A DNA stretch of 37,551 nt from a virus (Duplodnaviria; Heunggongvirae; Uroviricota; Caudoviricetes), in the IMG/VR virus record IMGVR_UViG_2778261670_000003, one strand, 5' to 3'. This document shows, in pieces, positions 1,658-37,551 of this stretch (its first letter is position 1; the number at the start of each line of letters is the position of its first letter). The position numbers and the translations under genes are program-made. The notes under the pieces are model-generated. The model did not search any database and was not told where the DNA came from. It saw nothing but the letters and a program-made list of their open reading frames with translations.

Positions 1658-2860
1658 CTATGCACCTATTTTATGAATCTGCACTGCTGTATCATTATCA
1701 GCTTCTGGTTGTTCTATTATATCTTCATTTTTAAAACAATTCACCAAATCATTTCTATGAGCTTTTACTACACTCATTAAATATGAAGAAGAGTAATGTT
1801 TGTTTCTGTTAGAAAGGTCAACGTGAATTTCATGGCGATAAACATATTCATCTAACCAAGTAGTTGAACCATTTTTTCCATTTATTTTGAATCCGATGCG
1901 TGCGTGATCATTCCCTACATTCTCATTGTTGTTTTCTGTATCTTCTGAAATAGGATTGTGGTTTTCTATATATTCATCGATGAGTTTAGTGAACTCTTCA
2001 GGCGTAGGCGTTCCTTCGACTAATAATTCAACGCGATGTTTTTTTGATAAAATAGGAGAGCTTCTTGAGAAAACATCTCCAACTGCATCAAATAACTTCT
2101 GCCATTTTTCCCGTGTATCAGGTATGTTTGTTTCTATTACGTCATGGTAAACAATGTGAGTGATTTTTTTACACAGTTCTTCTATGTTTGCTCCACTCGT
2201 GATCATCCTTGTTTGTTTAGTCTGTACTTTAAAAACTAAACTTTCATCATCACCTTGAGAAAAAAGAACACGTTTGTAATGAACGTCTTCAGGTGAGTCA
2301 TTACGAGGACGAGTCATATCTATGACTTTTTTATTAGGATGCTCCATCCTAAAGTCAACGTATGCTTTAATATAATGACAGAAAAGATCTGTATCCGTAT
2401 TAGAACTTGGGAATCGTATGGATGCAATTTTGTTATATTCTGGAATTACCCAATAGTAGCAAGGTACGCCCCAGATATATTTACCGCCACCTTGAGTATC
2501 AGAGGCGGATACAACATTATCTGAAGTGCCGTCAATCTTACTTTCAGCATCTATACCTTGAATATTTCCAGAGTTATCACCAAGCGTTTTCCAGATAACA
2601 AATAGATAATCTCCTGTCGTACTGTCATATGAAATATTTTTACAGTATGCTTTTGTTCTTCTATTATTATCCTTTCCCCATGGAACAGATTGTTCAACTG
2701 TTCTTGAACAGATCCAGCTATGTAAGTTACACAGAACATGGGATAAGTTCTTTTCGACTAATTCCGGCGATTTACCTTGTCGTATTTTATAAAGGCCAAA
2801 CATTTCTAAATCAAAAAATGTTATAATGCCGCGTTCAGTTTTAAAGTTGGTTTTACTCAT
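1658..2860 (-). CDS. Hypothetical 400-aa soluble protein, unknown function; first gene of AT-rich cargo cassette
   Basis: Long uninterrupted ORF with ATG at 2860. No motif I can assign to a known family. AT-rich. Immediately followed by the membrane protein gene. Confidence 0.75.
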   Translation of the reverse strand: MSKTNFKTERGIITFFDLEMFGLYKIRQGKSPELVEKNLSHVLCNLHSWICSRTVEQSVPWGKDNNRRTKAYCKNISYDSTTGDYLFVIWKTLGDNSGNIQGIDAESKIDGTSDNVVSASDTQGGGKYIWGVPCYYWVIPEYNKIASIRFPSSNTDTDLFCHYIKAYVDFRMEHPNKKVIDMTRPRNDSPEDVHYKRVLFSQGDDESLVFKVQTKQTRMITSGANIEELCKKITHIVYHDVIETNIPDTREKWQKLFDAVGDVFSRSSPILSKKHRVELLVEGTPTPEEFTKLIDEYIENHNPISEDTENNNENVGNDHARIGFKINGKNGSTTWLDEYVYRHEIHVDLSNRNKHYSSSYLMSVVKAHRNDLVNCFKNEDIIEQPEADNDTAVQIHKIGA

Positions 2861-2940: not shown

Positions 2941-3822
2941 TTAATTCGAAATGATTGTGCTTCTTATGCATGCAACTACCTCGATATCAGAAAATGCACA
3001 TTCAAAGTAAGTTTCTTTACTTCTGATATTTATCATACCTTTAGGTAGCCTAGTAATTTGTCTGACGGAATAGGTTCCATCAATATTAATTAACCAGTAT
3101 CCATCTAATACATCAGAAAATTTCTGATCACAGATGTATGTCACTAAACCATCCTGAACGACAATTGGTGCTGAAAGATTAGCGGGTAAAAATGACGAAT
3201 CGAAAATATATGAGCCACTCTCAACCATTTTGCCTGCATTGAGATGAAATTTAGGCAGTTCTTTTACCGATGTTGTGAGAGCATTGTGCTCGCTGCCTTG
3301 TCCAGTGGCTAGCCATAAAAGAGAATTTCCTGTTTCCAACGAACATTTTATGATCCAATCAGCCGGGAATGTGTCTCGCAAATATCTATTTGCCATAGTG
3401 CTTTTAGATACATTCAGATGGTCGGCAAGTTCTTGTCTTGTTTTAAAGCCATACGCTTTCATTAGCCTGTCTATTGCATCACGTCCGCCTGAGTCCAAAT
3501 TCAGATCGTTCCCAATTGGGGACTTCAGTGTGGTGGCTTGGGAAACGTGCTGAACCTTTGATGCAGTTGCCTTTGACATGACCGGAGCCTCAGTACTCTG
3601 AGGGAATGGTACGCCTTTTCCGAATGAGAGCCACTCGATAGATGCACCCGTTTCAATTGCACACTGAATTACCCAGTCAGCAGGAAATACGTCACGCATC
3701 CAGCGCGTGCCCATAGTGCTTGCAGATACGTTGAACTGTTCGCACAGAGCTTGCCTTGTCTTGAATCCATACGCTTCAAGCATGCGCGTTATGACTGCTT
3801 GTCCTCCGTTTTTGAAATTCAT
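2941..3822 (-). CDS. Immunity repressor, CI-like, with a tandemly duplicated N-terminal DNA-binding domain
   Basis: Two homologous about 65-aa repeats (…YGFKTRQ…STM…R…FPADW…ETG…WL…G). Position between int and cox/apl, divergent from the lytic operon. No obvious S24 Ser/Lys cleavage motif. Confidence 0.8.
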   Translation of the reverse strand: MNFKNGGQAVITRMLEAYGFKTRQALCEQFNVSASTMGTRWMRDVFPADWVIQCAIETGASIEWLSFGKGVPFPQSTEAPVMSKATASKVQHVSQATTLKSPIGNDLNLDSGGRDAIDRLMKAYGFKTRQELADHLNVSKSTMANRYLRDTFPADWIIKCSLETGNSLLWLATGQGSEHNALTTSVKELPKFHLNAGKMVESGSYIFDSSFLPANLSAPIVVQDGLVTYICDQKFSDVLDGYWLINIDGTYSVRQITRLPKGMINIRSKETYFECAFSDIEVVACIRSTIISN

Positions 3823-5525: not shown

Positions 5526-5752
5526 TGGCTGATGCAATGGATCTCGTACAGCAGCGAGTTGAAGAAGAACGCCAACGTCATATCCGTGCTGCCCGTGCCA
5601 AAACGCCGGGCGTGTCCCGCGTGCTTTGCGTTGAGTGCGAAGCGCCAATTCCGCCAGCACGCCGTCGTGCCATTCCGGGTGTGCAGCTTTGCATTACCTG
5701 TCAGGAAATCGCAGAGCTGAAAGGCAAACATTACAACGGAGGTGCTGTATGA
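5525..5752 (+). CDS. TraR/DksA-family C4 zinc-finger protein
   Basis: CVECEAPIP…CITCQ four-cysteine motif in a 75-aa protein. Common in P2-like early regions. Confidence 0.75.
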   Translation: MADAMDLVQQRVEEERQRHIRAARAKTPGVSRVLCVECEAPIPPARRRAIPGVQLCITCQEIAELKGKHYNGGAV

Positions 5753-6606
5753 GCACCATCCTGAAATGGGCGGGAAATAAAACCGCCATAATGTCCGAAC
5801 TGAAAAAGCATCTTCCTGCTGGCCCGCGACTGGTTGAACCTTTCGCGGGATCCTGTGCAGTGATGATGGAGACGGATTACCCTAGCTATCTTGTTGCGGA
5901 TATTAATCCTGATTTAATCAACCTCTATAAAAAGGTTGCTGCTGATTGTGAGGCGTTTATATCTCGTGCCAGAGCTTTATTTGAGGAAGCAAACAGGGAG
6001 GTGGCTTATTACAACATAAGGCAGGAGTTTAATTACTCCACTGAAATTACTGATTTCATGAAAGCGGTATATTTTCTGTATCTCAATCGTCATGGTTACC
6101 GTGGGTTATGTCGCTATAACAAGAGCGGGTATTTCAACATTCCCTACGGTAATTATAAAAATCCGTATTTCCCTGAAAAAGAAATTCGCGCATTTGCAGA
6201 GAAAGCCCAGCGAGCAACGTTTATCTGCGCCAGCTTTGATGAAACGCTGGCGATGCTGCAGGTGGGGGATGTGGTGTATTGCGATCCGCCTTATGACGGT
6301 ACGTTTTCCGGTTATCACACTGACGGCTTCACTGAAGATGACCAGTATCACCTGGCATCTGTTCTTGAATATCGATCATCAGAAGGTCATCCAGTCATTG
6401 TTTCTAACAGTGACACATCCCTGATCCGTTCGCTGTATCGAAATTTCACTCACCACTACATCAAGGCAAAACGCAGCATCGGCGTGTCGGCTGGCGAGAG
6501 TAAATCTGCAACAGAAATCATTGCTGTTTCCGGAGCGCGCTGCTGGGTGGGATTTGATCCTTCGTGTGGCGTGGATAGTTCTGCTGTGTACGAGGTGCGC
6601 GTATGA
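5749..6606 (+). CDS. dam: DNA adenine methyltransferase (Dam family, N6-adenine)
   Basis: N-terminal LKWAGNK, FAGS motif and catalytic DPPY motif. ATG at 5749 overlaps the previous stop (ATGA). The ORF track start at 5635 is an out-of-context N-terminal extension. Confidence 0.9.
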
Positions 6607-9017
6607 GTCATGACGATATGAGCAACTCTAGCGGCTTTAACGAGGCCGCTGCAGCATTTTCATGGAACGGCCCGAAAAAGGCCATTAACCCTTATCTGGA
6701 CCCGGCGGAAGTTGCGCCGGAGTCTGCACTTTCAAACCTGATCACTCTGTACGCTGCCGATAATGAGCAGGAACAGCTGCGCCGCGATGCACTGAGTGAG
6801 CAGGTCTGGGAGCGTTATTTCTTTAATGAATCCCGTGATCCTGTCCAGCGCGAAATGGAGCAGGATAAGCTCATTAGCCGGGCAAAGCTGGCGCATGAGC
6901 AGCAGCGTTTTAATCCAGACATGGTCATTCTGGCTGACGTCAACGCCCAACCTTCCCATATCAGCAAGCCGCTGATGCAACGTATTGAATACTTCAGCAG
7001 CCTGGGCAGGCCAAAGGCTTATTCTCGCTATTTGCGTGAGACGATTAAGCCATGTCTGGAACGACTGGAGCATGTACGCGACAGTCAGCTATCCACTTCT
7101 TTTCGCTTTATGGCAAGCCATGAAGGGCTGGACGGCCTGCTGATCCTGCCTGAAATGAGTCAGGATCAGGTGAAACGCCTGTCTACCCTTGTCGCTGCGC
7201 ATATGAGCATGTGTCTTGATGCCGCTTGTGGTGATTTGTACGCCACCGATGATGTTAAGCCAGAAGAAATCCGCAAGACATGGGAAAAGGTGGCAGCGGA
7301 AACCCTACGTTTGGATGTCATCCCGCCTGCGTTTGAGCAACTCCGTCGGAAAAGAAACCGCCGTAAACCAGTGCCCTATGAACTCATTCCGGGCTCGCTG
7401 GCGCGTATGCTGTGCGCCGACTGGTGGTATCGGAAATTGTGGAAGATGCGTTGCGAATGGCGGGAAGAGCAGTTGCGTGCTGTCTGCCTGGTCAGCAAAA
7501 AAGCATCTCCCTATGTCAGCTATGAAGCTGTGATGCATAAACGTGAGCAGCGCCGTAAGTCGCTGGAGTTTTTCCGTTCTCATGAACTGGTGAACGAAGA
7601 CGGAGACGCGCTGGATATGGAAGATGTGGTAAACGCCAGCTGCAGCAACCCGGCGCATCGCCGCAATGAGATGATGGCCTGTGTTAAAGGTCTGGAGCTT
7701 ATCGCGGAAATGCGCGGTGACTGCGCCGTTTTCTACACCATTACCTGTCCGTCACGTTTCCATTCCACGCTCAATAACGGCAGACCCAACCCGACCTGGA
7801 AAAACGCGACGGTAAGACAAAGCAGCGATTATCTGGTCGGTATGTTTGCTGCATTTCGTAAGGCGATGCACAAAGCCGGGTTGCGCTGGTATGGCGTGCG
7901 GGTGGCTGAGCCGCATCACGACGGCACAGTTCACTGGCACCTGTTGTGTTTCATGCGCAAAAAAGACCGCCGCGCCATTACTGCATTGTTGCGTAAGTTT
8001 GCTATCCGTGAAGACCGCGAGGAGCTGGGCAATAACACTGGGCCGCGCTTTAAGTCTGAGTTGATTAACCCGCGCAAAGGTACGCCAACAAGCTACATCG
8101 CGAAATACATCAGTAAGAACATTGACGGGCGTGGTCTGGCTGGCGAGATCAGCAAGGAAACGGGGAAATCCCTGCGTGATAATGCTGAATACGTTAATGC
8201 CTGGGCGTCTCTGCATCGTGTTCAGCAATTCCGCTTCTTTGGCATTCCGGGGCGTCAGGCTTACCGTGAACTGCGATTGCTGGCTGGTCAGGCGGCAAGG
8301 CAACAGGGGGACAAAAAAGCAGGTGCGCCGGTACTGGATAACCCGCGCCTTGATGCAATCCTGGCTGCTGCTGATGCTGGTTGTTTTGCCACCTACATCA
8401 TGAAGCAGGGCGGCGTACTGGTTCCCCGCAAATATCACCTGATCAGAACCGCTTATGAAATCAACGAAGAGCCGACCGCCTATGGCGATCACGGCATTCG
8501 TATTTATGGCATCTGGTCACCCATTGCAGAGGGCAAGATCTGCACTCATGCAGTGAAGTGGAAAATGGTTCGTAAGGCCGTTGACGTTCAGGAGGCGGCA
8601 GCCGACCAGGGCGCTTGCGCCTCTTGGACTCGTGGCAATAACTGTCCCCTTGCTGAAAATTTAAACCAACAAGGGAAAGACAAATCAGCTGATGGGGACT
8701 CCAGAACGGATATTACCCGTATGAATGACAAGGAGTTGCACGATTACCTGCACAGTATGAGCAAAAAAGAGCGCCGGGAACTGGCTGCAAGGTTACGCCA
8801 GGTGAAACCGAAACGGCGTAAAGACTACAAACAGCGAATTACAGACCATCAGCGACAGCAGCTCGTCTATGAACTGAAGTCTAGGGGATTTGATGGCAGC
8901 GAGAAAGAAGTCGATTTGCTCCTTCGCGGCGGCAGTATTCCGTCAGGAGCAGGCCTGCGTATCTTCTATCGGAACCAGCGTCTGAAGGAAGATGATAAGT
9001 GGCGGAACCTGTATTAA
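6603..9017 (+). CDS. Replication initiation endonuclease (P2 gpA-like rolling-circle initiator)
   Basis: 804-aa product with HUH-type VHWHLL motif. Position downstream of early genes as in P2/186. Confidence 0.9.
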
Positions 9018-9169: not shown

Positions 9170-9358
9170 ATGCAGGACTATTTTTTGGAGTCTTTGAAGC
9201 TCCAGCGCATTGATTTTTTTCTTAAGCTTGTAGCGGCTAGTGAGTGTAGTGATGAAGAGAAGGGGCTGGCTCTGCAGTGGGTTTCTGAATTGACTGATGA
9301 ACTCATGGCAAAAATCAGAAGCCACGAATACAACCGCTCAATGGATGTCATCAGCTGA
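9170..9358 (+). CDS. Small hypothetical protein, first ORF of SOS-controlled module (Tum-like N-terminal part?)
   Basis: Strong GGAGG SD at 9161-9165, ATG at 9170; 62 aa. Confidence 0.5.
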   Translation: MQDYFLESLKLQRIDFFLKLVAASECSDEEKGLALQWVSELTDELMAKIRSHEYNRSMDVIS

Positions 9359-9368
9359 GGTGACTTTT

Positions 9369-9602
9369 ATGCGCATTGAAATAATGATCGATAAAGAGCA
9401 GAAGATTAGCCAGTCTACCCTGGACGCCCTTGAATCCGAGCTTTACCGCAATCTGCGCCCCCTGTATCCCAAAACGGTAATTCGCATTCGCAAAGGTAGC
9501 TCTAACGGTGTGGAACTAACCGGACTGCAACTGGATGAAGAAAGAAAACAAGTGATGAAAATTATGCAGAAGGTGTGGGAGGACGACAGCTGGCTGCATT
9601 AA
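9369..9602 (+). CDS. dinI: DinI-family protein (186 Tum-like C-terminal antirepressor domain)
   Basis: 77-aa product MRIEIMIDKEQ…, similar in length and pattern to E. coli DinI (MRIEVTIAK…). GAGGTG SD upstream. LexA box upstream. Confidence 0.8.
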   Translation: MRIEIMIDKEQKISQSTLDALESELYRNLRPLYPKTVIRIRKGSSNGVELTGLQLDEERKQVMKIMQKVWEDDSWLH

Positions 9603-10588: not shown

Positions 10589-10743
10589 GTGCCCTTAGCA
10601 GGAAAGTACATTCAATATGTTACTTTCTAGTGGTTGGTGTTTAGCCAACTCGTATGGATTGCTTGGTATCTCGACACAAGTTAGCCTTGTGTCATTTATA
10701 GACACCAGGCTAACTTGTGTCTCGGGAACTCTTGTATGGGCAT
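10589..10743 (+). ncRNA. Candidate retron msr-msd non-coding RNA (boundaries approximate)
   Basis: Ec86-like GTGCCCTTA-G motif at 10589-10598 (candidate a1 plus branching G). Imperfect complement TATGGGCAT at 10735-10743 (candidate a2). Two msr-like stem-loops at 10602-10627 and 10632-10647. A perfect 14-bp inverted repeat with nested hairpin at 10673-10721 is msd-like. Lies directly upstream of the effector and RT on the same strand. Confidence 0.4.
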
Positions 10744-11669
10744 TAATTGTTATGTGGTTTAAACATCCTAGATATTTACGAGCAAAAGAAAATTTTATTT
10801 CAAGTTTTTTTCCAAGTAACTTGAATTCTTTTAATTATATCCTGCCAAAAGTATTATTTATTTGTGGAGGAGATGAGACTTATTGTTCAAATAGAGGGAT
10901 GCTGGAAAAATATATTGCTAAGCATCATAAAGAATTTGTTACTTTTCGAGCAGAATTAGCATGGGACGTAATTAGCAATTTAGGAACTCATAGTAATGTG
11001 AATGCGTTATCACTTGAAGAATGGCTTGCGGATTTTTCTGATGTGGTAATTATTCTCGTAGAGAGTTATGGCACTGTAGCTGAATTGGGCGCATTTTCAT
11101 TAAGTCCTGTTTTACGTAAAAAACTTCTTCCTATATTAGATAAAAAGTTTGAAAGTCATAAGTCATTTATCAATACAGGGCCCGTAAAATGGGTTGATAG
11201 TGAATCCAAATTTGGCCCTACAATCTATACTGAATTTGAGACAATTTTAACGTGTATGCCTAAAATAAATGAAAGGCTAAATAGGAAAGTTCAATCAAAC
11301 ATAACTAATACAAATTCAATAGGTGATTACAAATATTCACCAAAAATTTTTTTATTTTTTGTGCTCGTTGTTATATCTTCTTTAGGTCCAATAACAATTC
11401 CTGAGATTATTAATATCACAGGTAGGTTGATAAATTATAAAATTAATAAAAATATTTCATTTGTTGTTTCTATTGGAGTTGCTCTTGGGATTTTTAAGGA
11501 AAGTCGATTTGAGGGCGTGACCCATTATTCATGTGTCGATTATATTAAATTTTTTAATCATGAAAAGATGAAAGATTTAGTTGAAAGTATTCAACGAAGT
11601 AGAGCTAGATCATTATCCGATTTAATAATGATATCTAAATTCAAAGCAGAATTAGAAAGGATCATGTGA
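10617..11669 (+). CDS. Retron effector, nucleoside 2-deoxyribosyltransferase-like (NDT-like) with C-terminal hydrophobic segments
   Basis: ESYGTVAELGA resembles the NDT catalytic-glutamate motif, after a beta-strand-like KVLFICGG. Two C-terminal hydrophobic stretches. AT-rich. The 10617 ATG has an AGGAAA SD but lies inside a predicted RNA hairpin; the true start may be ATG 10752, just after the candidate a2. Confidence 0.7.
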   Translation: MLLSSGWCLANSYGLLGISTQVSLVSFIDTRLTCVSGTLVWALIVMWFKHPRYLRAKENFISSFFPSNLNSFNYILPKVLFICGGDETYCSNRGMLEKYIAKHHKEFVTFRAELAWDVISNLGTHSNVNALSLEEWLADFSDVVIILVESYGTVAELGAFSLSPVLRKKLLPILDKKFESHKSFINTGPVKWVDSESKFGPTIYTEFETILTCMPKINERLNRKVQSNITNTNSIGDYKYSPKIFLFFVLVVISSLGPITIPEIINITGRLINYKINKNISFVVSIGVALGIFKESRFEGVTHYSCVDYIKFFNHEKMKDLVESIQRSRARSLSDLIMISKFKAELERIM

Positions 11670-11670
11670 T

Positions 11671-12600
11671 ATGTTAATTGAGTATCTAGCTAAAGTTTTA
11701 CTGTTAGAAGCTGATTTTATATTAAAAGTTGCAAATGATGCTAACTCGCATTATGGTAAATTTTCTGTACCTAAAAAAGGCGGTGGGACAAGAATCGTCT
11801 ATCAGCCCTCTAAAGAATTAAAAGTTTTGCAGAGATTACTTCATGATAATGTTCTGTCGAAATTGCCGATTCATCCAAATGCTGTAGCATATCAGCAGGG
11901 TTCATCAGTGTTCAAACATGCAAGCATTCACAAAGCTAAACGTTTTATGCTTAAGATGGACTTTGAAGGTTTTTTTGATTCAATTAAGGAAAGTGATGTT
12001 GAGAGATTTATAAACGACAACAAGCATTTCTTCAGTGATGATTGGTCAAAGGATGATACTGATTTGCTGGTAAAAATAGTATGCTTTAACGGGAGACTGA
12101 CTATGGGTGCTGTTAGTTCCCCTGTGGTAAGCAATGCTATATGCTATGAATTAGATCATATATTGAATGAATTTTGTCTTTCAAAAGGTGTAACATATAC
12201 ACGCTATGCTGATGATATGTACTTCTCAACAAACGAAGAAAATGTATTGAAGCAAATACCACCTTTTTTACGCTCGAATTTAAAAACTTTAAAATACCCA
12301 TCAAAACTATGGATTAATAGAAAAAAGACACTGCATATGTCAAAGAAAAATAAAATGATGGTTACGGGTGTGACTTTGACAACAGATGGTGGAGTATCCT
12401 TAGGGAGAGATAAAAAAAGGATGGTTAAATCGCTTATTTTTAAATGGGAGGCTCTTGATGAGAAGAAAAGGCTATTTCTTCAAGGATATTTATCGTATTG
12501 CAAAAGTGTTGAGCCATTATTTATTAATAGGCTTTGTGCGAAATATTCATCAGAGCTGATTGATGAAATCCAGAGATATCAACCTGAAGTATCAGAATAA
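11671..12600 (+). CDS. Retron-type reverse transcriptase
   Basis: Motifs VYQPSKELKVLQ, LKMDFEGFFDSI, YTRYADDMYFS (YADD catalytic) and MVTGVTLT (retron VTG motif) align with Ec86 RT as I recall it. 309 aa, the typical retron RT size. Confidence 0.9.
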   Translation: MLIEYLAKVLLLEADFILKVANDANSHYGKFSVPKKGGGTRIVYQPSKELKVLQRLLHDNVLSKLPIHPNAVAYQQGSSVFKHASIHKAKRFMLKMDFEGFFDSIKESDVERFINDNKHFFSDDWSKDDTDLLVKIVCFNGRLTMGAVSSPVVSNAICYELDHILNEFCLSKGVTYTRYADDMYFSTNEENVLKQIPPFLRSNLKTLKYPSKLWINRKKTLHMSKKNKMMVTGVTLTTDGGVSLGRDKKRMVKSLIFKWEALDEKKRLFLQGYLSYCKSVEPLFINRLCAKYSSELIDEIQRYQPEVSE

Positions 12601-12606
12601 CGTGTG

Positions 12607-12637
12607 TGCGCATGAAAATTTCCATGCGCATTTTCTT
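12607..12637 (+). terminator. Rho-independent terminator (TGCGCATG-8nt-CATGCGCA then TTTTCTT) after the RT gene
   Basis: Perfect 8-bp stem followed by a T-run; sits between convergent RT and portal genes. Confidence 0.6.
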
Positions 12638-13661
12638 AAAAACAGTAGTCATTAAATGAAATAATTTCTTTTCCAGCCCAGTTATTCAGTGATTCAAAAT
12701 TCTTTTGCAATGGCATTAACTCATTCCGCACAAACACTTTGCTTGCCTTCTCCACATCCCCAAATCCCCCAACATTATTAGGCATAATCCCCATCATCTG
12801 CGGCGGCACGCGGTGTGCCGCCATCATGTCATCGCGACTAACATTTTTGATATTCAAAAACTCATCCTTCGCCGCGACTTCTGACAATGGGATGATCTGA
12901 AGCCCGTCTTTTTTGCCGTTAGGCGAGTACATAAACAGGTTGCGGAAGTTGCCTGGCCCTTTGGCGCTTTTCATCGCGTTGCGGAGGTTGTTCACATCCT
13001 CCTGGTTCTGAGCGGCATCGGTCATGTACATTATGAATCCTGCATGGCTGCCATTAATATAATATTTGCGTCGGAACAGCGTGGCGGACTCGTTGAGCAG
13101 GGCTGACGGAATGGCAGAAAGATAACCGGGCAGGCCGTAGATCTCCTGGTTGATATCGGGTTCCATCAGATGAAAGATGCTGCCTTTCGTGAACTGATAC
13201 GGCTGGGTTGTCATACTGTATTGCACAAACCAGTAGGTATCCAGGTCTAACCCGCGTCGGGTGTATTTTGCCAGTGCAGGCTCAAGGGCGATAACTTCAC
13301 CGAAGCGGTTCGTGCGTTTCTCCAGGTAGGCGTTACCAAAAACCAGATAGTCCTGCACAAAACGCGAAAAAGCCTGCTGGCTGAGCAGCGGGTGAGGGAT
13401 GTAGGTGCTGGTCAGAATGTTGCACTTCACTGCAATCGGTGAGCTGTGATGCACGGCGGCGCGGAAGGTTCGCGCCAGTCCGTCGAAACTCACAGGCGGC
13501 TCATACCAACGATCCATCTGTACGCATTCCACATAGTCCAGCAGTTCGCGGCGGTCCAGAACAGGAACGGGATCACCGAAGCTGAATGCTTCGGCTGAAG
13601 TTTGGTTTTTATGCTGGATCTGATTCGTCGCCGCAGCGCGTTTTTTCTTACTCTTTCCCAT
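12636..13661 (-). CDS. Portal protein (P2 gpQ-like)
   Basis: 341-aa product, size and position match P2 Q. ATG at 13661; the ORF track begins one codon earlier at a TTG. Confidence 0.9.
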   Translation of the reverse strand: MGKSKKKRAAATNQIQHKNQTSAEAFSFGDPVPVLDRRELLDYVECVQMDRWYEPPVSFDGLARTFRAAVHHSSPIAVKCNILTSTYIPHPLLSQQAFSRFVQDYLVFGNAYLEKRTNRFGEVIALEPALAKYTRRGLDLDTYWFVQYSMTTQPYQFTKGSIFHLMEPDINQEIYGLPGYLSAIPSALLNESATLFRRKYYINGSHAGFIMYMTDAAQNQEDVNNLRNAMKSAKGPGNFRNLFMYSPNGKKDGLQIIPLSEVAAKDEFLNIKNVSRDDMMAAHRVPPQMMGIMPNNVGGFGDVEKASKVFVRNELMPLQKNFESLNNWAGKEIISFNDYCF

Positions 13662-15427
13662 CAAAAAATCTCCACAATATTGCTGGTATTGGCGGACTCG
13701 CCCTGCAGCGGTTCGTTAAACAGTGCGTGCATGGTTGCCCAGGCCAGATCGGCATGGCTGGCTTCTTCGCTGCGGCTGGCTTCATAGGTCGGGCGGTTGC
13801 CGCTGGCGGTGGTGGCGCGACGGATTGCCATAAATGACTGCGCTATGTCGGTGTGTCCGGCGTCAAACTCCAGACGGCGGTGACTGATAATGTCGTAGGC
13901 CTTGAGTACCAGGGCGTTTTTAACGTTGGGGTTGTAGACAAACTCCCGGACGGCTGGAAAAAACGCTTTCACGTTCTCGTAAACCCCGTGGCCGACACCT
14001 GTCGAGTCGATGCCGATGTAGGTCACGTTGTACTGCTCGGTCAGTTTTTTGATGGCGTCAGCCTGGGCGCGGAAGTCCATCCCGCGCCACTGGTGACGCT
14101 CAAGAATGCGGAACTTGCCGCCCGGCACGGCTGGCGGTGCCACCACCACGCATCCGGCGCTGTCGCCGTTCTGCGTACCTTTGGCCGGGTCATAACCGAT
14201 CCACACTTCGCGCCAGCCAAACGGGCGCAGTGCCAGTGCATGAAAGTCGGTCCAGACTTCCCAGCTGTCCACCATGCACGCCTGCAGCTCGCTGAGCGGG
14301 AACACGGACGCGAGATCGTCCACGAACTCGCACATCAGCAGGTTTTGGTATTCGTCCGGGCTGTACTCCATGCGTAGCTGGTCGAGGTCGAACAGGTTAC
14401 AGCCGCCGCGCACCGCATCTTCCACGGTGACTATCTGGCGGTATTGCCCGTCAGCGCACAGCAGGCCGGGGGCCAGGTTGTTGTGGGACAGGTCGATGTC
14501 CACCTTATCGGCTTTGTTGCGTCCACGGTTGAACAGCGCACCGGACCAGAACGGATAAGCACTGTGGGTCAGGCTGGATGGCGTGGAAAAATAGGTTTGT
14601 CGCCATTTTTTGTGAATAGCCATACCGGAAGCCACTTTGCGCAGCTCCTGGAATTTCGGTATCCAGAAATATTCATCCAGATACAGGTTGCCGTGGTAAC
14701 TCTGGGCCGTGCGGGCATTGGTGCCGAGGAAGTAAAGCGTGGCCCCGTTAGGAAGCACCATCGGATCGCCTTTCAGCTCCACCTCCACTTCTTTGGCGAA
14801 GTCGATGATGTACTGCTTAAAGACGTGGGCCTGTGCCTTACTGGCGGAAAGGAAAATCTGGTTACGCCCGGTAAGCAGGGCGTCAATCAGGGCTTCACGG
14901 GCAAAGTAAAAGGTCGCGCCGATCTGGCGTGACTTCAGCAGGTTGCGGATGCGGTTGGTTTTTCCGGCTTCCCACCAGTGGCGCTGGTAGTTGAACATGG
15001 AGGAATGGAAGATTTCTTCCAGCTTCTCAATCTGCTCATCGGTGAAAACATTCTTTTCCGGCTGACGGCGTGGGCCTTTGTTGCGGTTGGCGACGTTAGG
15101 GTTTAAGTCGGCTTCGTTGCCGCCATTGTTAAACTTGCCGATCCGCGCGTGGCGCTCCGACTGGCGCGCCAGCAGGTCAATCTCTTTGAAATCTTTCCCT
15201 TCTTTGTGCTCCTTCATGATGAGCTGGCAGTAGCGTGCGGCGGTGGTGAGCTGCATCTGATCCAGCGGCCCATAGTCACCCCACTTGTCGCGTTTTTTCC
15301 AGCTGTGAACGGTTGCAACTTTCTCGCCCAGCATTTCAGCTATGCGGGCTACGCGGTATCCCTGAAAGTACAGCAGCATGGCCTGCCGACGGGGATCGAG
15401 ATCTGCGGGTGTCAGTGTGGTGTTCAT
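13661..15427 (-). CDS. Terminase large (ATPase) subunit (P2 gpP-like)
   Basis: 588 aa, co-oriented with portal. P2 P is about 590 aa. Confidence 0.9.
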   Translation of the reverse strand: MNTTLTPADLDPRRQAMLLYFQGYRVARIAEMLGEKVATVHSWKKRDKWGDYGPLDQMQLTTAARYCQLIMKEHKEGKDFKEIDLLARQSERHARIGKFNNGGNEADLNPNVANRNKGPRRQPEKNVFTDEQIEKLEEIFHSSMFNYQRHWWEAGKTNRIRNLLKSRQIGATFYFAREALIDALLTGRNQIFLSASKAQAHVFKQYIIDFAKEVEVELKGDPMVLPNGATLYFLGTNARTAQSYHGNLYLDEYFWIPKFQELRKVASGMAIHKKWRQTYFSTPSSLTHSAYPFWSGALFNRGRNKADKVDIDLSHNNLAPGLLCADGQYRQIVTVEDAVRGGCNLFDLDQLRMEYSPDEYQNLLMCEFVDDLASVFPLSELQACMVDSWEVWTDFHALALRPFGWREVWIGYDPAKGTQNGDSAGCVVVAPPAVPGGKFRILERHQWRGMDFRAQADAIKKLTEQYNVTYIGIDSTGVGHGVYENVKAFFPAVREFVYNPNVKNALVLKAYDIISHRRLEFDAGHTDIAQSFMAIRRATTASGNRPTYEASRSEEASHADLAWATMHALFNEPLQGESANTSNIVEIF

Positions 15428-23275: not shown

Positions 23276-23873
23276 TCTGCTGCCACCGGGTTCAACACCA
23301 CTGGAGCGCCGACTGGCGCACACCTGCAGCGGGATTTCTGATCTGCAGGTGCCACTGCGTGACTTGTGGAATCCGGCGACCTGTCCGGTCAGTTTCCTGC
23401 CTTATCTCGCCTGGGCGTTCTCTGTGGATCGCTGGGACGAGAGCTGGACGGAAAGCGTCAAGCGCCAGGTGGTGAAGGATGCTTTTTATATTCATCAGCA
23501 TAAAGGGACCACCAGTGCCGTGCGGCGGGTGGTGGAGCCGTTCGGCTTTCTGATCCGCATTATTGAGTGGTGGCAGACCGGAGAGGCACCGGGCACGTTT
23601 CGCCTGGATATCGGCGTGCAGGACCAGGGCATCACTGAAGATACCTATCTAGAACTTGAGCGACTGATAAGCGATGCCAAACCATGTAGCCGCCACATGA
23701 TCGGCATGTCCATCAATCTGCAGACCAGCGGCCCGCATTGGGTGGGAGCCGCCAGCTATCTTGGCGAAGAAATCACGATCTATCCGTATATCAACGAAAC
23801 GATTATTTCCGGTGGCACCGCGCATGAAGGCGGGGCGGTCCATGTTATTGACACAATGAGAGTGAATCCATGA
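23268..23873 (+). CDS. Baseplate / tail protein (P2 gpI-like)
   Basis: 201 aa between J and the tail fibre. Confidence 0.8.
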   Translation: MNSLLPPGSTPLERRLAHTCSGISDLQVPLRDLWNPATCPVSFLPYLAWAFSVDRWDESWTESVKRQVVKDAFYIHQHKGTTSAVRRVVEPFGFLIRIIEWWQTGEAPGTFRLDIGVQDQGITEDTYLELERLISDAKPCSRHMIGMSINLQTSGPHWVGAASYLGEEITIYPYINETIISGGTAHEGGAVHVIDTMRVNP

Positions 23874-25411
23874 GCACAAAATTTTATACCCTGCTGACGG
23901 ATATTGGCGCGGCGAAACTTGCCAGCGCCGCCGCGCTCGGTGTGCCGCTAAAAATTACCCATATGGCGGTGGGCGATGGCGGCGGAGTATTGCCAACGCC
24001 GGACGCAAAGCAGACGGCACTGGTAAATGAGAAACGCCGGGCTGCGCTGAATATGCTTTATATCGACCCGCAGAATAGCAGCCAGATTATTGCTGAACAG
24101 GTGATCCCTGAAAACGAGGGCGGTTGGTGGATACGTGAAGTGGGCCTGTTTGATGAGTCCGGGGCATTGATTGCCGTGGGCAACTGCCCGGAAAGCTATA
24201 AGCCGCAACTGGCTGAAGGCAGCGGGCGCACCCAGACCGTGCGCATGGTGCTGATTACCAGCAGTACGGACAATATCACCCTGAAAATCGACCCTGCTGT
24301 AGTGCTGGCAACCCGCAAGTATGTGGATGACAAGGTACTGGAGCTGAAGGTGTACGTGGATGACCTGATGGCAAAACATCTTGCTGCACAGGACCCACAT
24401 TCACAGTACGCGCCAAAAGCCAGCCCGACATTTACCGGAACCCCCAAAGCGCCAACGCCAGCGGCGGGGAATAATACCACGCAGGTTGCGACCACTGCGT
24501 TTGTACAGGCGGCACTGACGGCCCTTATTAATGGTGCGCCAGCCACGCTGGACACGCTGAAAGAAATAGCCGCAGCCATTAACAATGATCCGAATTTCAG
24601 TACCACCATTAACAATGCGCTGGCACTAAAAGCACCGTTGTCGAGTCCGGCACTCACCGGAACGCCAACAGCCCCCACGGCGGCGCAGTCGGTCAACAAT
24701 ACACAGATTGCCACTACGGCTTTTGTGAAATCGGCGATTGCGGCAATGGTGGGTTCTGCACCTGCGGCACTGGATACACTGAACGAACTGGCGGCGGCGC
24801 TGGGGAATGATCCGAACTTTGCCACGACAATGCTTAATGCGCTGGTAGGTAAACAACCGCTGGACAATACGCTGACTAATTTGAGTGGAAAGGATGTAGC
24901 TGGTCTTCTCGCATACCTTGGTTTGGGAGAAGGCTCTGCATTACCTGTTGGTGTGCCTGTTCCGTGGCCTTCCGCCACTCCGCCGACAGGCTGGCTGAAA
25001 TGCAATGGTGCGGCTTTTTCTGCTGAAGAATACCCGGAACTGGCAAAGGCTTACCCGACAAATAAATTGCCTGATTTACGCGGTGAGTTTATTCGTGGCT
25101 GGGATGACGGACGTGGAGTGGATAACGGAAGGGGATTATTAACGCTTCAGGACGGTGCGATTGTCAGTCATAACCACTATTGGGGAATCTGGACTTCACG
25201 AACTAACGACCAGACTCTGGAAAGTTTTACAGGCACCACGATTTTAAAACAAATCACGCCCCTGTCTCCGGCCATTGACTTCGATAATTACCCAATTCCC
25301 AACCCGGCTATTACAGAGGGTGGTGTTGTTGCGGCAACGACTAAACCTGCAGGTGCGAATGAAACACGCCCACGAAATGTCTCTTTTAACTATATTGTGA
25401 GGGCTGCATAA
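23870..25411 (+). CDS. Tail fibre protein (P2 gpH-like); C-terminal part lies inside an invertible segment
   Basis: 513 aa with conserved N-terminus MSTKFYTLLTDIGAAK…, internal repeats and a variable C-terminus. Confidence 0.85.
   Translation: MSTKFYTLLTDIGAAKLASAAALGVPLKITHMAVGDGGGVLPTPDAKQTALVNEKRRAALNMLYIDPQNSSQIIAEQVIPENEGGWWIREVGLFDESGALIAVGNCPESYKPQLAEGSGRTQTVRMVLITSSTDNITLKIDPAVVLATRKYVDDKVLELKVYVDDLMAKHLAAQDPHSQYAPKASPTFTGTPKAPTPAAGNNTTQVATTAFVQAALTALINGAPATLDTLKEIAAAINNDPNFSTTINNALALKAPLSSPALTGTPTAPTAAQSVNNTQIATTAFVKSAIAAMVGSAPAALDTLNELAAALGNDPNFATTMLNALVGKQPLDNTLTNLSGKDVAGLLAYLGLGEGSALPVGVPVPWPSATPPTGWLKCNGAAFSAEEYPELAKAYPTNKLPDLRGEFIRGWDDGRGVDNGRGLLTLQDGAIVSHNHYWGIWTSRTNDQTLESFTGTTILKQITPLSPAIDFDNYPIPNPAITEGGVVAATTKPAGANETRPRNVSFNYIVRAA
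24471..24862 (+). repeat. Two diverged tandem copies of an about 170-bp unit inside the tail-fibre gene
   Basis: Protein-level repeat …NNTxQxATTAFVxxAxxAxxxxAPAxLDTLxExAAAxxNDPNFxTTxxNAL… occurs twice. Confidence 0.5.
24918..24931. repeat. Left recombination (crossover) site of invertible tail-fibre segment (TTGGTTTGGGAGAA)
   Basis: Exact inverted copy at 26760-26773; resembles gix/hix half-site GGTTTTGGATAA. Confidence 0.55.
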
Positions 25412-26013
25412 TGAATAACGCAGAATTAAACAGTGAATTAATTGCCACTATGGCAGGAGAAATTACTGTTTATAACTTTGATGTCATGAGTCGGGAATAT
25501 ATTTCAGCTTCAACTGAATATCTTGCTATTGGTGTCGGCATTCCGGCATATTCCTGTTTAGATGCTCCAGGTGCATACAAAGCTGGTTATGCAATCTGCC
25601 GTTCTGCAGATTTTAACTCATGGGAATATGTGCCAGACCATCGCGGTGAAATCGTCTTTAGCACCGAAACAGGAGAATCAAAAGAAATCACAGCTCCGGG
25701 TGATTACCCTGAAAATACGACCACTATCGCCCCGTTAACGCCTTACGATAAATGGGATGGTGAGAAATGGGTGACGGATACTGAAGCACAACACGGTGCC
25801 GCAGTAGAAGCGGCAGAAGCACAGCGACAGTCACTAATTGATACTGCAATGGCTTCCATTAGTCTGATTCAACTGAAATTACAGGCCGGGAGGAAGCTGA
25901 CGCAGACAGAAACCACCCGACTAAACGCTGTGCTGGATTACATTGACGCGGTGGCGGCAACAGATACCAGCACCGCGCCGGATGTCATCTGGCCTGAACT
26001 GCCGGAGGCGTAG
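25411..26013 (+). CDS. Tail fibre assembly protein (P2 gpG-like)
   Basis: 200 aa directly after H. Confidence 0.75.
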   Translation: MNNAELNSELIATMAGEITVYNFDVMSREYISASTEYLAIGVGIPAYSCLDAPGAYKAGYAICRSADFNSWEYVPDHRGEIVFSTETGESKEITAPGDYPENTTTIAPLTPYDKWDGEKWVTDTEAQHGAAVEAAEAQRQSLIDTAMASISLIQLKLQAGRKLTQTETTRLNAVLDYIDAVAATDTSTAPDVIWPELPEA

Positions 26014-26422
26014 GCCATTCAATATCTGGAGCACTGGAGGTATCAATCAGTTCCAGTGCGTCCAGATAATCCAGCCACAAATTATATTGCGCCAGTTCCT
26101 CATCTTTCAGACGACCAATAGCGGCTTTACCGGGCCATTGTTTACTGTTCATGTATTCGTTGGCCTGATTAAGCAATAATTGCCTTTCTGATTCTGCCTG
26201 TTGAATAAGTTCTTCATATGATGGTGGAGGTATTTGAGCCCATGTGGGTAATCCATTTTCTCCTGCAACACGAATTTTGCCATCTGGGGGCGTATTGATT
26301 GCAAATTCATTATAAACATCATCACTGACAGCCAGAGCATCATCTGGCCATGAATTTGCATTAATGTAATCATCCTTAAGCACAGGATTTACAAAAATGT
26401 TTAAAGATGGACTATAAAACAT
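25985..26422 (-). CDS. Alternative tail fibre assembly protein (inverted-orientation cassette)
   Basis: 145 aa, C-terminus similar to G (…LDYIDA/LDYLDA…TSxAPDxxWPxxP…), convergent with G. Confidence 0.7.
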   Translation of the reverse strand: MFYSPSLNIFVNPVLKDDYINANSWPDDALAVSDDVYNEFAINTPPDGKIRVAGENGLPTWAQIPPPSYEELIQQAESERQLLLNQANEYMNSKQWPGKAAIGRLKDEELAQYNLWLDYLDALELIDTSSAPDIEWPTPPAVQAR

Positions 26423-26423
26423 G

Positions 26424-26813
26424 TTAAACCCCTATAGCGATATAACGACCTAATACAGCATTTGCAGAAGTCGCTATGCTTGAAAAACCGCGGAACTGAT
26501 TTGATGTAATTGCAGAAGCCGACAGGATTCCTGCGCCTGAAGGTGTATGCCCCACATGACTAACTATCATCCCATAACATGCTGACGGAAAGGCAAAAGG
26601 AAAATCATTAAGATATCCGGCATCTTCACCACCAGACCCACCAAATCTCGCCTGCCCCCACTGAATAATCAGTGTTCTCCGGGAACCTGAAATAATTAAC
26701 GGAATCGTTACATACCCATTCAGACCAATGACACCCGATGCAGTGCCAGCCAGAGATAATTCTCCCAAACCAACGTTTATGAAAATGCAGAGATAACGGC
26801 TAACTGGCATCAT
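26424..26813 (-). CDS. Alternative tail-fibre C-terminal cassette (H'), expressed only after inversion
   Basis: Minus-strand ORF shares LGLGE at the crossover with H. Has no credible independent start; the functional part begins at about 26773. Confidence 0.6.
   Translation of the reverse strand: MMPVSRYLCIFINVGLGELSLAGTASGVIGLNGYVTIPLIISGSRRTLIIQWGQARFGGSGGEDAGYLNDFPFAFPSACYGMIVSHVGHTPSGAGILSASAITSNQFRGFSSIATSANAVLGRYIAIGV
26760..26773. repeat. Right recombination (crossover) site of invertible segment (inverted copy of 24918-24931)
   Basis: Seen directly: TTCTCCCAAACCAA is the reverse complement of TTGGTTTGGGAGAA. Confidence 0.55.
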
Positions 26814-26840
26814 CCCCGGTTTTTATTCAGGGGATTGATC

Positions 26841-27407
26841 ATGCTTATTGGCTATGTACGCGTGTCAACAAATGACCAGAACACCGATTTGCAACGTAAT
26901 GCACTGAACTGCGCGGGATGTGAGCGGATTTTTGAGGACAAAATCAGTGGCACTAAGTCCGACAGACCGGGACTGAAAAAACTGCTCAGGACATTATCGG
27001 CAGGTGACACTCTGGTTGTCTGGAAGCTGGACAGGTTGGGGCGCAGTATGCGGCATCTCGTTACGCTGATAGAAGAGCTGCGCCAGCGTGGCGTGAATTT
27101 CCGAAGCCTGACTGACAGTATTGATACCAGTACCCCAATGGGCCGTTTCTTTTTTCATGTCATGGGGGCCCTGGCTGAAATGGAGCGCGAACTGATAGTT
27201 GAACGTACCAGGGCGGGGCTGGCTGCAGCTCGCGCCAAAGGCAGAGTAGGTGGACGCCGTCCTAAGTTGATCACCGAACAGTGGGCACAGATTGGACGTT
27301 TACTCGAGGCCGGAGAATCAAGACAGCGTATTGCACTGATTTTTGATGTAGGTGTTTCCACAATTTATAGAAAATTTCCGGCAAATAAGAGCAATGAATC
27401 CCCCTGA
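26841..27407 (+). CDS. Site-specific DNA invertase, serine recombinase (Hin/Gin/Pin/Cin family)
   Basis: N-terminal …GYVRVSTNDQ… catalytic serine motif and C-terminal HTH; 188 aa. Adjacent to the invertible segment. Confidence 0.9.
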   Translation: MLIGYVRVSTNDQNTDLQRNALNCAGCERIFEDKISGTKSDRPGLKKLLRTLSAGDTLVVWKLDRLGRSMRHLVTLIEELRQRGVNFRSLTDSIDTSTPMGRFFFHVMGALAEMERELIVERTRAGLAAARAKGRVGGRRPKLITEQWAQIGRLLEAGESRQRIALIFDVGVSTIYRKFPANKSNESP

Positions 27408-27455: not shown

Positions 27456-27473
27456 TGTATGAATAACGGTACA
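27456..27473 (+). promoter_or_regulatory. TGT-N12-ACA dyad (P_F-like late promoter element)
   Basis: TGTatgaataacggtACA upstream of the sheath gene. Confidence 0.45.
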
Positions 27474-34770: not shown

Positions 34771-34819
34771 GGCAACAAAAAACCCATCAACCTTGAACCG
34801 AAATGGCGGGGTTGATGGG
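34771..34819 (-). terminator. Rho-independent terminator downstream of ybjL (minus strand)
   Basis: Inverted repeat CCCATCAACC / GGTTGATGGG (34783-34792 / 34810-34819) followed on the minus strand by a TTTTTTGTTG run. Confidence 0.5.
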
Positions 34820-34931
34820 CTCCACAAAATGGGGACATCAAAGAAAAGCAGTGGCACTAATTAAGACTGATGCCCTGCGGAAAAGTTCTGCGGTTGTGCA
34901 AAAAAATTTCATTTTCAGGGCAACTTCAGTT

Positions 34932-36617
34932 TTATCCTAATCCTGGCCATACCATGACGATGATTGTCCCTGCCAGCGTCAGCAGGACGTTGGCGATTGC
35001 GTAGGTGCCCGCATAGCCCAGCGCAGGGATGTTACTGCGAGCTGTATCACTGATGATCTCCATTGCCGGCGCGCAGGTGCGTGCGCCCATCATTGCGCCG
35101 AACAACAGTGCGCGGTTCATTCGCAATACATAAGCACCGAACAAGAAACAGATAACCACGGGCACAAGACTGACAATTAATCCGGCAATCAACATCTGAC
35201 CGCCAATCGCGCCCAGGCCGTTATTAATACCGCTACCGGCGCTCAGACCAACGCCTGCCATAAACACCATCAAGCCGAACTCTTTCACCATGCTTAATGC
35301 ACCTTGCGGAATGTAACCGAAGGTCGGGTGGTTAGCACGCATAAAGCCCAGCATAATTCCGGCGAATAACAACCCGGCAGCGTTCCCCATGCCGAAACTG
35401 AATGTGCTGAACTGGAAGGTGATCATCCCGATCATCAGCCCAATAACAAAGAAGGCGCAAAATGCCAGCAGGTCAGTGACCTGGCTGTGAATCGAGATAA
35501 AGCCGATGCGATCGGCGATGGTTTTTACGCGACGGGCATCACCGCTGACTTGTAAAACGTCACCTTTGTTAAGCACGACGTTGTCATCTATCGGCATCTC
35601 AATCTGGCTACGAATGACGCGGTTAAGGAAGCAACCGTGATCGGTCAACTTCAGTTGTGCGAGACGTTTACCTACAGCGTTATGGTTTTTAACGACCACT
35701 TCTTCAGTGACGATACGCATGTCGAGAAGGTCACGATCGAAAACTTCTTTACCGTTACGGAAGCTGGGATCGAGTCGGGCATGGGCGTCGGGATAGCCTA
35801 CCAACGCTATTTCATCGCCCATTTGTAGCACGGCATCACCGTCTGGATTTGCCAGAATCCCGTTACGTCGAATACGTTCAATGTAGCAGCCGGTTTGTCG
35901 ATAAATACCCAGTTCACGCAGATTTTTGCCGTCGGTCCAGGCCACCAGCTCCGGGCCGACGCGATAGGCGCGGATCACCGGTAAATAAACCTTACGGTTG
36001 GCATCAGTGTCCAGGCCACGTTCGCGGGCGATTTGCTGGGCGCTGGTCTGTAAGTCCTGATGCTGCAATTTCGGCAAGTAACGCGCACCAACAATCAAAC
36101 TCACCAGACCGATTAAATAGGTTAAGGCATACCCGAGGCTCAGATTATCCAGTGCCAGTGAGAGCTGCCTGCTTTCCATGCCGGAATGACGCAGTGTATC
36201 GCCAGCACCGACCAGAACCGGTGTCGACGTCATAGAGCCTGCTAACATACCGGCCGTCAGGCCAATATCCCAGCCAAACAGCTTACCTAACCCTAAGGCG
36301 ATCACCAGCGCACTGCCAACCATCACCAGTGCTAACATTAGGTAATTTTTCCCATCGCGAAAAAAAATGGAAAAAAAGTTCGGTCCGGCTTCGACCCCGA
36401 CGCAGAAAATAAACAGCATAAAGCCAAGATTAAGCGCATCGGTGTTAATGCTGAAATGTTGTTGGCCTAATAACAGCGATACGACTAAAACGCCAATGGA
36501 ATTACCCAGTTGGATCGAACCAAGTCGTAACTTTCCGAGACATAGCCCAAGCGCGAGGACCACAAATAATAACAGAATGTAATTCCCATTTAACAATTCG
36601 GCGACGTTTATATTCAC
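34932..36617 (-). CDS. ybjL: Putative transport protein YbjL (host chromosomal gene)
   Basis: 561-aa polytopic membrane protein with central soluble domains. Recognised as E. coli YbjL by size and by synteny with ybjM and grxA. Confidence 0.85.
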
Positions 36618-36886
36618 GGAGGCTAACTTCTTGTTTACTAGTAAGCTGTTGAAAGAAATGGTAATTTACGATAATGTTTTTTACCAGAATTCAGGGCGCA
36701 GATTCATTCAGCGCACCTAAACGATAGTAAAGTAACAATATATTTTACTAGTGTAATCACATTAGGTATCAACGGCTATATGAATTGCGTTGGCCTATAT
36801 TAGCATGGAATGCGAAGCGGCTTTATCTTACTGAACGCCACACTGGCGAAAAATGTGTTCGATAGACGCAGTGTCAGGAGGAACGA

Positions 36887-37264
36887 GTGAAACATAAACA
36901 ACGTTGGGCGGGGGCAATCTGCTGTTTTGTCCTCTTCATTGTGGTGTGCCTTTTTCTGGCGACGCACATGAAAGGCGCTTTTCGGGCTGCCGGGCATCCT
37001 GAAATCGGCTTGCTATTTTTCATTCTTCCTGGAGCAGTCGCCAGCTTCTTTTCACAGCGTAGAGAAGTCCTGAAACCTCTGTTTGGCGCAATGCTGGCGG
37101 CACCCTGTTCGATGCTCATTATGCGGCTGTTTTTTTCACCGACGCGCTCATTCTGGCAAGAGCTGGCATGGTTACTAAGCGCGGTGTTCTGGTGTGCGCT
37201 GGGGGCACTGTGTTTCTTATTTATCAGTAGTTTGTTTAAACCACAGCACAGAAAAAATCAGTAA
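36887..37264 (+). CDS. ybjM: Inner membrane protein YbjM (host)
   Basis: 125-aa hydrophobic protein, AGGAGG SD, GTG start. Confidence 0.8.
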   Translation: MKHKQRWAGAICCFVLFIVVCLFLATHMKGAFRAAGHPEIGLLFFILPGAVASFFSQRREVLKPLFGAMLAAPCSMLIMRLFFSPTRSFWQELAWLLSAVFWCALGALCFLFISSLFKPQHRKNQ

Positions 37265-37293
37265 AGCCCTCAACGCGAGGGCTTGTCAGACGA

Positions 37294-37551
37294 TCAGGCG
37301 TCCAGATTTTCTTTCACCCATGCAGCAAAATCGGTATAGCCGCCGATATGTTGCTGATCGACAAAAATCTGCGGCACGGTTTCTACGGGTTTACCTGCCT
37401 TTTGTTGTAGATCTTCTTTAGTGATCCCTTCCGCACGAATATCTACATACTGATACTGAAAATCATCGCGTTCATTGCTCAATTTCTCAGCCAGATCTTT
37501 TGCACGCACACAGTAAGGGCAACCCGAACGACCAAAAATAACGGTTTGCAT
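37294..37551 (-). CDS. grxA: Glutaredoxin 1 (host)
   Basis: 85 aa with CPYC active site; matches E. coli GrxA as recalled. Confidence 0.9.
   Translation of the reverse strand: MQTVIFGRSGCPYCVRAKDLAEKLSNERDDFQYQYVDIRAEGITKEDLQQKAGKPVETVPQIFVDQQHIGGYTDFAAWVKENLDA

Follow-up and report, generated by a model that had tools for sequence, protein, structure and literature searches.

The tail-fibre locus analysed here, part of a P2/186-like (Peduoviridae) prophage of Escherichia coli carried on the IMG/VR virus record IMGVR_UViG_2778261670_000003 (the window, meaning the whole stretch of 37,551 nucleotides), is very probably a site-specific inversion switch of the Pin/Gin/Cin type. It comprises an invertible segment of 1852 base pairs (bp) from core to core (24920-26771; strand not applicable), within which two convergent cassettes each hold a tail-fibre C-terminus and an assembly gene, and a serine DNA invertase gene just beyond the right end of that segment. 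The anatomy of the locus, the reading frame kept upon inversion and the family of both enzyme and sites can be read directly from the window, inversion at homologous sites is observed in close relatives, and activity in this particular prophage is what we infer. Switches working by this mechanism have been textbook examples since the G segment of Mu, the C segment of P1, the P segment of e14 and the Hin system of Salmonella, and the system type, its presence in P2-like phages and its activity there are all already known.

Crossover sites, fibre cassettes and invertase

The sequence TTGGTTTGGGAGAA, 14 bp in length, is present as two exact copies in inverted orientation, one on the plus strand (24918-24931) and one on the minus strand (26760-26773), and a search permitting 2 mismatches returned no third copy anywhere in the window. 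A repeat finder extends the pair into imperfect arms of 26 nucleotides (24906-24931 and 26760-26785) that are 81% complementary, and the 14-bp repeats form the conserved part of two 26-bp crossover sites of the hix/gix/cix/pix type. The left site (24906-24931, plus strand) lies inside the fibre gene H and reads TTCTCGCATACC-TT-GGTTTGGGAGAA, with its TT core at 24918-24919; it codes for the LGLGE junction of the fibre, in codons 346-354 of H (...LAYLGLGE). The right site (26760-26785, minus strand) reads TTTTCATAAACG-TT-GGTTTGGGAGAA on the minus strand and is positioned at the start of the alternative fibre C-terminus, its end falling 55 bp ahead of the invertase start codon. Both sites are imperfect dyads of 12-2-12 layout with an identical, non-palindromic TT core and identical inner half-sites.

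The notion that the repeat is significant by length alone was rejected, since at least one exact 14-mer inverted pair within 3 kilobases (kb) occurs by chance in 36% of Markov-1 random sequences. The window as a whole holds 15 exact 14-mer inverted seed pairs, of which 7 (5 distinct repeats) fall within 3 kb, against a random expectation of 0.53. These counts speak for an alternative in which the pair is a chance repeat, or a by-product of the common LGLGE coding, and in which differences of orientation among relatives stem from homologous recombination or assembly error. The pair owes its significance to where it lies, to the 26-bp structure of the sites and to conservation, rather than to length: it sits within a 12-2-12 site like those of gix, cix and pix, and a Pin-like invertase adjoins it. 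Fourteen base pairs are, as general knowledge has it, too short for efficient RecA-dependent recombination. The remaining evidence on this alternative comes from the relatives described below.

Other exact inverted repeats of 14-15 bp within 3 kb are found at 30886/32509, 28668/30726 and 13953/15290. The half-site pattern is matched a third time within the terminase gene (13974-13999), but this hit lacks a corresponding outer half and was set aside as a chance occurrence.

In the present orientation, H is an open reading frame (ORF) of 513 amino acids (23870-25411, plus strand) bearing the Pfam domain Phage_tail_fib at residues 1-150 (expectation value, E, 7e-65), which is a P2-type N-terminus, and, more distally, a Collar domain (residues 361-408). 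The constant part of H extends to about 24916 and is followed by the variable C-terminus now expressed, Hv (24917-25411, plus strand). Its partner is the assembly gene G (25411-26013, plus strand; 200 amino acids; Caudo_TAP, E 8e-33), the start codon of which overlaps the stop codon of H (TAATG). Converging on G, and overlapping its 3' end by 29 bp, is the alternative assembly gene G' (25985-26422, minus strand; 145 amino acids; Caudo_TAP, E 2e-34), silent as oriented. Beside it lies the equally silent alternative fibre C-terminus Hv' (26424-26774, minus strand; Gp53-like_C, E 9e-13), which, counted from the (L/V)GLGE junction, is 116 codons long. Hv' lacks a fibre N-terminus, its sole upstream extension being 13 codons from an ATG at 26813, and the minus-strand ORF annotated as a "gp53-like domain-containing protein" is this silent C-terminal cassette, not a stand-alone gene. 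A scan for terminator-like sites found none above chance level between G and G', and a scan against NCBIfam returned no family for any fibre or chaperone part.

Inversion of positions 24932-26759 in silico produces an uninterrupted H' of 465 amino acids that ends in the gp53-like domain, with the frame kept and G' beginning 1 nucleotide past the H' stop codon. An earlier note on this DNA, drawn up from the sequence alone, had reported the pair of 14-bp inverted repeats, which is exact and confined to two copies, along with two fibre C-termini and two assembly genes in opposite orientations, a description borne out by the Pfam assignments (Collar and Gp53-like_C; Caudo_TAP twice). It had also placed both repeats in frame at a shared LGLGE peptide. 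The frame is indeed shared, as the 465-residue H' demonstrates; the peptide requires correction, as the silent minus-strand frame reads VGLGE and the Leu codon is supplied by the H side upon inversion. Both chaperones are of the Caudo_TAP family. The two tips are from unrelated Pfam families (Collar-containing versus Gp53-like_C), which makes it likely that the two orientations differ in receptor specificity.

The serine DNA invertase (26841-27407, plus strand; ATG at 26841; 188 amino acids) displays the Pfam domains Resolvase (E 2e-53) and HTH_7 and can be aligned along its entire length with the Mu Gin crystal structures (3UJ3, E 5e-92; 4M6F, E 1e-90). Among structure matches, Gin scores 305-310 bits, compared to 102-122 bits for the gamma-delta and Tn3 resolvases. 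The enzyme is 86% identical to PinE of e14, 79% to Cin of P1 and 74% to Gin of Mu, and 98.9% identical to the protein annotated as DNA invertase in Klebsiella phage KP12. Judged by these alignments, it belongs to the Gin/Hin/Cin/Pin group and not to the resolvases, in agreement with the earlier note, which had placed a serine invertase of this family just outside the right repeat; NCBIfam gave sub-threshold matches only. The GYVRVSTNDQ motif, containing Ser9, which corresponds to the nucleophilic serine (Ser9 in Gin, Ser10 in Hin), and the KLDRLGRS motif are identical to those of Gin, and Ser9, Arg7 and D64-R65-x-x-R68 are all intact. Position 114 is Met, and the crystallised chains of 3UJ3 and 4M6F have Val; we take Met to be the wild-type residue of Gin at this position and M114V to be a Fis-independent mutation.

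The residues uniquely conserved among DNA invertases for activation by Fis and the enhancer are the basic residues of helix B at Hin positions 47/48/51 together with Gln151, Arg154 and Leu155 in helix 1 of the DNA-binding domain (PMC3798978). In the alignment with Gin, the window invertase carries K46, K47 and R50 and the stretch ...AQIGRLL... at the aligned positions. The match of K46/K47/R50 and of the Q/R/L residues to Hin numbering is presumed from a hand count on the Hin sequence.

The 5' end of the invertase gene contains a candidate recombinational (Fis) enhancer at 26862-26925 (strand not applicable), proposed from motif and synonymous-site conservation. In the Gin and Cin systems a Fis-bound enhancer is located toward the 5' end of the invertase gene, some 100 bp from the closer crossover site. 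The same arrangement is described for Hin (PMC3798978). A literature search for published coordinates of the Fis sites of gin, cin, hin or pin returned nothing, and the enhancer was therefore approachable only through motif and synonymous-site conservation. The 15-mer GCGCGGGATGTGAGC, centred at +78 of the invertase gene, fits the Fis consensus GNNYRNNWNNYRNNC and is conserved in gin and cin. A second 15-mer, GTGTCAACAAATGAC, centred at +29 and 97 bp from the centre of the right site, fits G-N13-C only; the strict consensus yields a single conserved site, that at +78. In a set of 74 unique invertase genes, codons 9-14, 26 and 28-31 have almost no diversity at the third position, and the synonymous pairwise difference is 0.09-0.11 over codons 1-15 and 0.16 over codons 26-35, compared to 0.25 gene-wide. 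This pattern fits two constrained DNA elements about 48-50 bp apart, which are candidate Fis sites short of proof, and it would be consistent with a Fis-dependent switch.

In the mechanism proposed here, invertase dimers would bind the two crossover sites at 24906-24931 and 26760-26785 and cleave at their common TT core by means of Ser9, and strand exchange by subunit rotation would invert the 1.85 kb between them. Transcription and translation, within the late tail operon that contains H, would reach only the cassette that follows the H constant part. The present orientation would give H a Collar-domain, StfE-like tip with the TfaE-like chaperone G, and the flipped orientation would give H' a gp53-like tip with the TfaP/U'-like chaperone G'. 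A population of lysogens would release two types of virion that differ in receptor specificity.

Inversion among relatives and its alternatives

Complete E. coli genomes with at least 80% query coverage display the locus in both states, the window orientation in 42 records and the version flipped in silico in 23. Both are represented within the single strain ATCC 8739, which has the window orientation in NZ_CP033020 and the flipped one in NC_010468 and NZ_CP022959. The first two of these records are identical across 6539 bp save for an exact 1831-bp inversion bounded by TTGGTTTGGGAGA. A second instance is provided by strain 13TMH22, where the chromosome and a 36-kb circular record of the same assembly differ by an exact 1822-bp inversion and are otherwise identical across about 6.5 kb; in both strains the inverted block has TTGGTTTGGGAGA(A) at either end. 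The crossover site is the exact inversion breakpoint in both record pairs, and both loci are ~96.5% identical to the window across the shared parts. Assemblies of one strain may legitimately differ at such loci.

The 13TMH22 records (NZ_CP019256 and NZ_CP019257) include a 36,172-bp circular 'plasmid', p13TMH22-1, that corresponds to the chromosomal prophage over the 6.5 kb compared, with the segment flipped. It is probably an excised or replicating phage genome that was assembled as a separate replicon.

A wider survey covered 80 IMG/VR loci recovered by an invertase scan at 85-99% protein identity. Exactly one inverted site pair is present in 54 of them, where the left site keeps the same position, with TT at the core of all 108 sites, a spacing between the two 26-bp sites of 1074-3427 bp (median 1812) and outer half-sites conserved separately for left and right. 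In nearly all 80, the invertase is found at the same fixed distance from the right site. The same cassettes are met in both orientations among these relatives; that of the window, Hv'/G', is in the expressed orientation in loci L009, L015 and L086, where the DNA identity of Hv' is 98-99%, and in the silent orientation in L032.

The invariant core in 54 of 80 loci that differ in their cassettes, and the exact breakpoint in two independent same-strain pairs lacking any other difference over 6.5 kb, bear on the alternative of a chance repeat. Taken with the structure of the sites, this conservation and the same-strain inversions effectively refute it, and its probability is negligible.

Inversion of such modules has also been measured experimentally. 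Goldberg et al. found reproducible inversion by whole-genome sequencing in clonal cultures, with e14 of an MG1655 derivative as one example, and e14 flips at roughly 1:1 in MG1655 derivatives (PMC4272514). Two P2-like prophages of the enteropathogenic E. coli (EPEC) strain E2348/69 invert as well, one giving two variants and the other, with three inverted repeats, giving four (PMC4272514). Four viral contigs of the present survey (L026, L027, L058 and L069) have more than the usual 2 crossover sites, with 3 or 4 each, and may be either tandem prophages or multi-inversion (shufflon-like) variants of the kind found in one of the EPEC P2-like prophages (PMC4272514).

It may be asked whether the locus is a frozen relic, once inverting and now locked by a weak or unexpressed invertase or a missing enhancer, such that only the present H and G are made. 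The window itself holds no demonstration of activity, a search of the plus strand for sigma-70-like promoters turned up no convincing one for the invertase gene, and the closest relative, e14, is a defective prophage. Yet e14 still flips, as do loci ~96.5% identical to the window within single strains. The invertase ORF is intact with every catalytic motif present, the cores and inner half-sites are identical in both sites, and the silent cassette consists of an intact open frame and an intact chaperone gene, features that speak against decay. A locked state is considered improbable.

The reading of the locus as a working host-range switch has several points against it. The window is one snapshot, and flipping was observed in relatives, not in this very prophage; the surveyed sequences are phylogenetically related, not independent. 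The consequence of the two tips for host range is expected from their families, and the Fis enhancer is suggested by conservation, of a kind that 5' gene ends can also display for translational or other reasons in the form of low synonymous variation. The candidate 15-mers are 49 bp apart, compared to 48 bp in hin. Should the switch operate as proposed, host-range prediction for such prophages must allow for two fibre tips.

Relation to known systems and the P2 Z/fun hotspot

The e14 element of E. coli K-12, with its invertase PinE and P segment (stfP/ycfK-tfaP / tfaE-stfE), has the same layout as the window: a fibre gene, the segment itself with a C-terminus and chaperone facing a second chaperone and C-terminus, and an invertase whose transcription leads away from that segment. 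Identities to the e14 counterparts are 86.5% for G (TfaE), 57% for Hv (StfE C-terminus), 52% for G' (TfaP) and 36% for Hv' (StfP). The pix sites of e14 read CTCTCGAAAACC-TT-GGTTTGGGAGAA and TTTTCATAAACG-TT-GGTTTGGGAGAA, and the right site of the window equals the pix site beside pinE at 26/26 positions, with the left site differing in its outer half only. Because of this identical right site and the 86.5% identity of G to TfaE, the closest characterised system is, by these comparisons, the e14 Pin/P segment rather than Mu G. The earlier note had named the architecture of Mu G, P1 C and e14 Pin collectively; site layout, enzyme identity and segment content all support that description, which can now be narrowed to e14. 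The two elements differ in that e14 is defective and lambdoid, its fibre gene being truncated, whereas the window module is built on an H N-terminus of P2 type (Phage_tail_fib), belongs to a P2/186-like genome that appears complete, and has tips that have diverged.

Such similarity raises the question of whether the segment is inverted mainly in trans by another resident invertase, such as PinE of e14 or that of a second P2-like prophage, leaving the adjacent gene dispensable. The identity of the right site to pix and the identical inner half-sites would allow this, as would the number of homologous loci, of which an E. coli genome has a median of 2 and as many as 9-11. That Gin, Cin, Pin and Hin can complement one another is established and points the same way. 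The adjacent invertase is nonetheless intact, and its constant spacing from the right site, kept by almost all of the 80 relatives, argues for a cognate enzyme, so that a mainly foreign invertase is held to be very improbable. An inactive cognate invertase would not alone refute the switch, because e14-like sites could be flipped in trans.

Because the sites are nearly identical to those of e14 and P2-like prophages and several homologous places exist per genome, resident invertases could also occasionally recombine sites belonging to different prophages, with cassette exchange and large chromosomal inversions or deletions as the outcome. We regard this as unlikely; if true, it would make these modules a genome-wide, cross-talking network instead of isolated switches. 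The need for an enhancer in cis and the defined topology of the synapse argue that such events are rare.

The G segment of Mu resembles the window in having two inverted 26-bp sites and two cassettes of C-terminus plus chaperone. Its gix site, TTCCTGTAAACC-GA-GGTTTTGGATAA, is found within the fibre gene S and again directly ahead of gin, and the distance from gixR to gin is 54 bp, compared to 55 bp from site to invertase start in the window. The core dinucleotide differs, being GA in gix and TT in the window, and Mu is a transposable myovirus, not a P2-like phage. G' is 37.5% identical to a Mu minus-strand frame (L005, 3318-3740) that overlaps the annotated tail-fibre assembly gene of the G segment; fibre parts other than G' gave no significant Mu match. 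The comparison with P1 extended to cin and a cix site, CAATCCTAAACC-TT-GGTTTAAGAGAA, which shares the TT core and 12-2-12 layout of the window sites. It was found at the 3' end of cin, whereas the window site is upstream of the invertase.

The late genes of the window are ordered V-W-J-I-H-G ... FI-FII, with the inversion cargo between G and FI. The order H-G-...-FI-FII is common to P2 (NC_001895), and FI is 68% identical to that of P2. The G-FI interval of P2 contains a terminator and fun(Z), without an invertase; no fun(Z) homologue was found in the window, and the fibre tip and chaperone of the window are unrelated to the H C-terminus and G of P2. The module occupies the Z/fun hotspot of P2, the position to which the earlier note had assigned it. 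A DNA invertase and inversion of the adjacent genes have often been seen in this hotspot (bioRxiv 10.1101/2024.10.15.618418). Among classified phages the nearest is Escherichia phage 500465-1 (Peduoviridae, Wadgaonvirus), with the order J-I-H-G / G'-Hv' / invertase - sheath (FI) - tube (FII) and a gene annotated as DNA invertase, and it is joined by Klebsiella phage KP12 and the prophages of EPEC E2348/69 as P2-like examples with an invertase in the Z/fun hotspot. These P2-like relatives differ from the window only in the combination of variable cassettes. The best phage records cover at most 76% of the query, and one complete E. coli genome covers 100% of it at 96.6% identity. The discovery value of the locus is low, given that the presence of the module in the P2-like Z/fun hotspot is already documented by public annotation and by experimental measurement.

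Between the invertase gene and FI lies the motif TGTATGAATAACGGTACA (TGT-N12-ACA) at 27456-27473, 94 nucleotides upstream of the FI start. The annotated pF late-promoter activator (Ogr) site of P2 is 97 nucleotides upstream of its FI, and by this likeness the promoter of the F operon seems to be retained downstream of the invertase gene.

Other features of the prophage

The old/tin hotspot, situated between gpA (6603-9017) and the portal gene (12636-13664, minus strand), contains a type II-A retron-like pair at 10617-12600 on the plus strand. Its effector matches NDT_II-A of PADLOC (E 9e-54) from residue 57 onward, and its reverse transcriptase, of 309 amino acids, matches RT_II-A (E 5e-105) and Pfam RVT_1. 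A perfect 15-bp inverted repeat (10673-10687 / 10707-10721), forming a hairpin at 10673-10721, falls within the effector ORF, at its nominal 5' end, and may belong to an msd stem; Rfam at the gathering score found no msr/msd in the retron-like region.

At the left end, a gene of 400 amino acids without a Pfam domain (1658-2860, minus strand) is found between the integrase (1-1068, minus strand) and the CI repressor. It matches PDC-M18A of PADLOC (E 2e-36), and this candidate defence gene may be the cargo of a third P2-family hotspot. The regulatory region is 186-like and not P2-like in appearance, with a CI repressor at 2941-3822 (minus strand) bearing Phage_CI_repr and Phage_CI_C domains. A Dam-type D12 methyltransferase (5635-6606, plus strand) and a DinI-like ORF (9297-9602, plus strand) are also present, the latter of which may be a Tum-type antirepressor.

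Rfam at gathering thresholds gave nothing in or near the inversion locus, and no transfer RNA was found in the window. The only Rfam match is the host small RNA gene RybB (34774-34852, minus strand; 105 bits), directly beyond the right end of the prophage, followed by a host flank at 34932-37551 that contains ybjL, ybjM and grxA and matches E. coli at 100% identity. Integration of the prophage appears to have taken place beside rybB.

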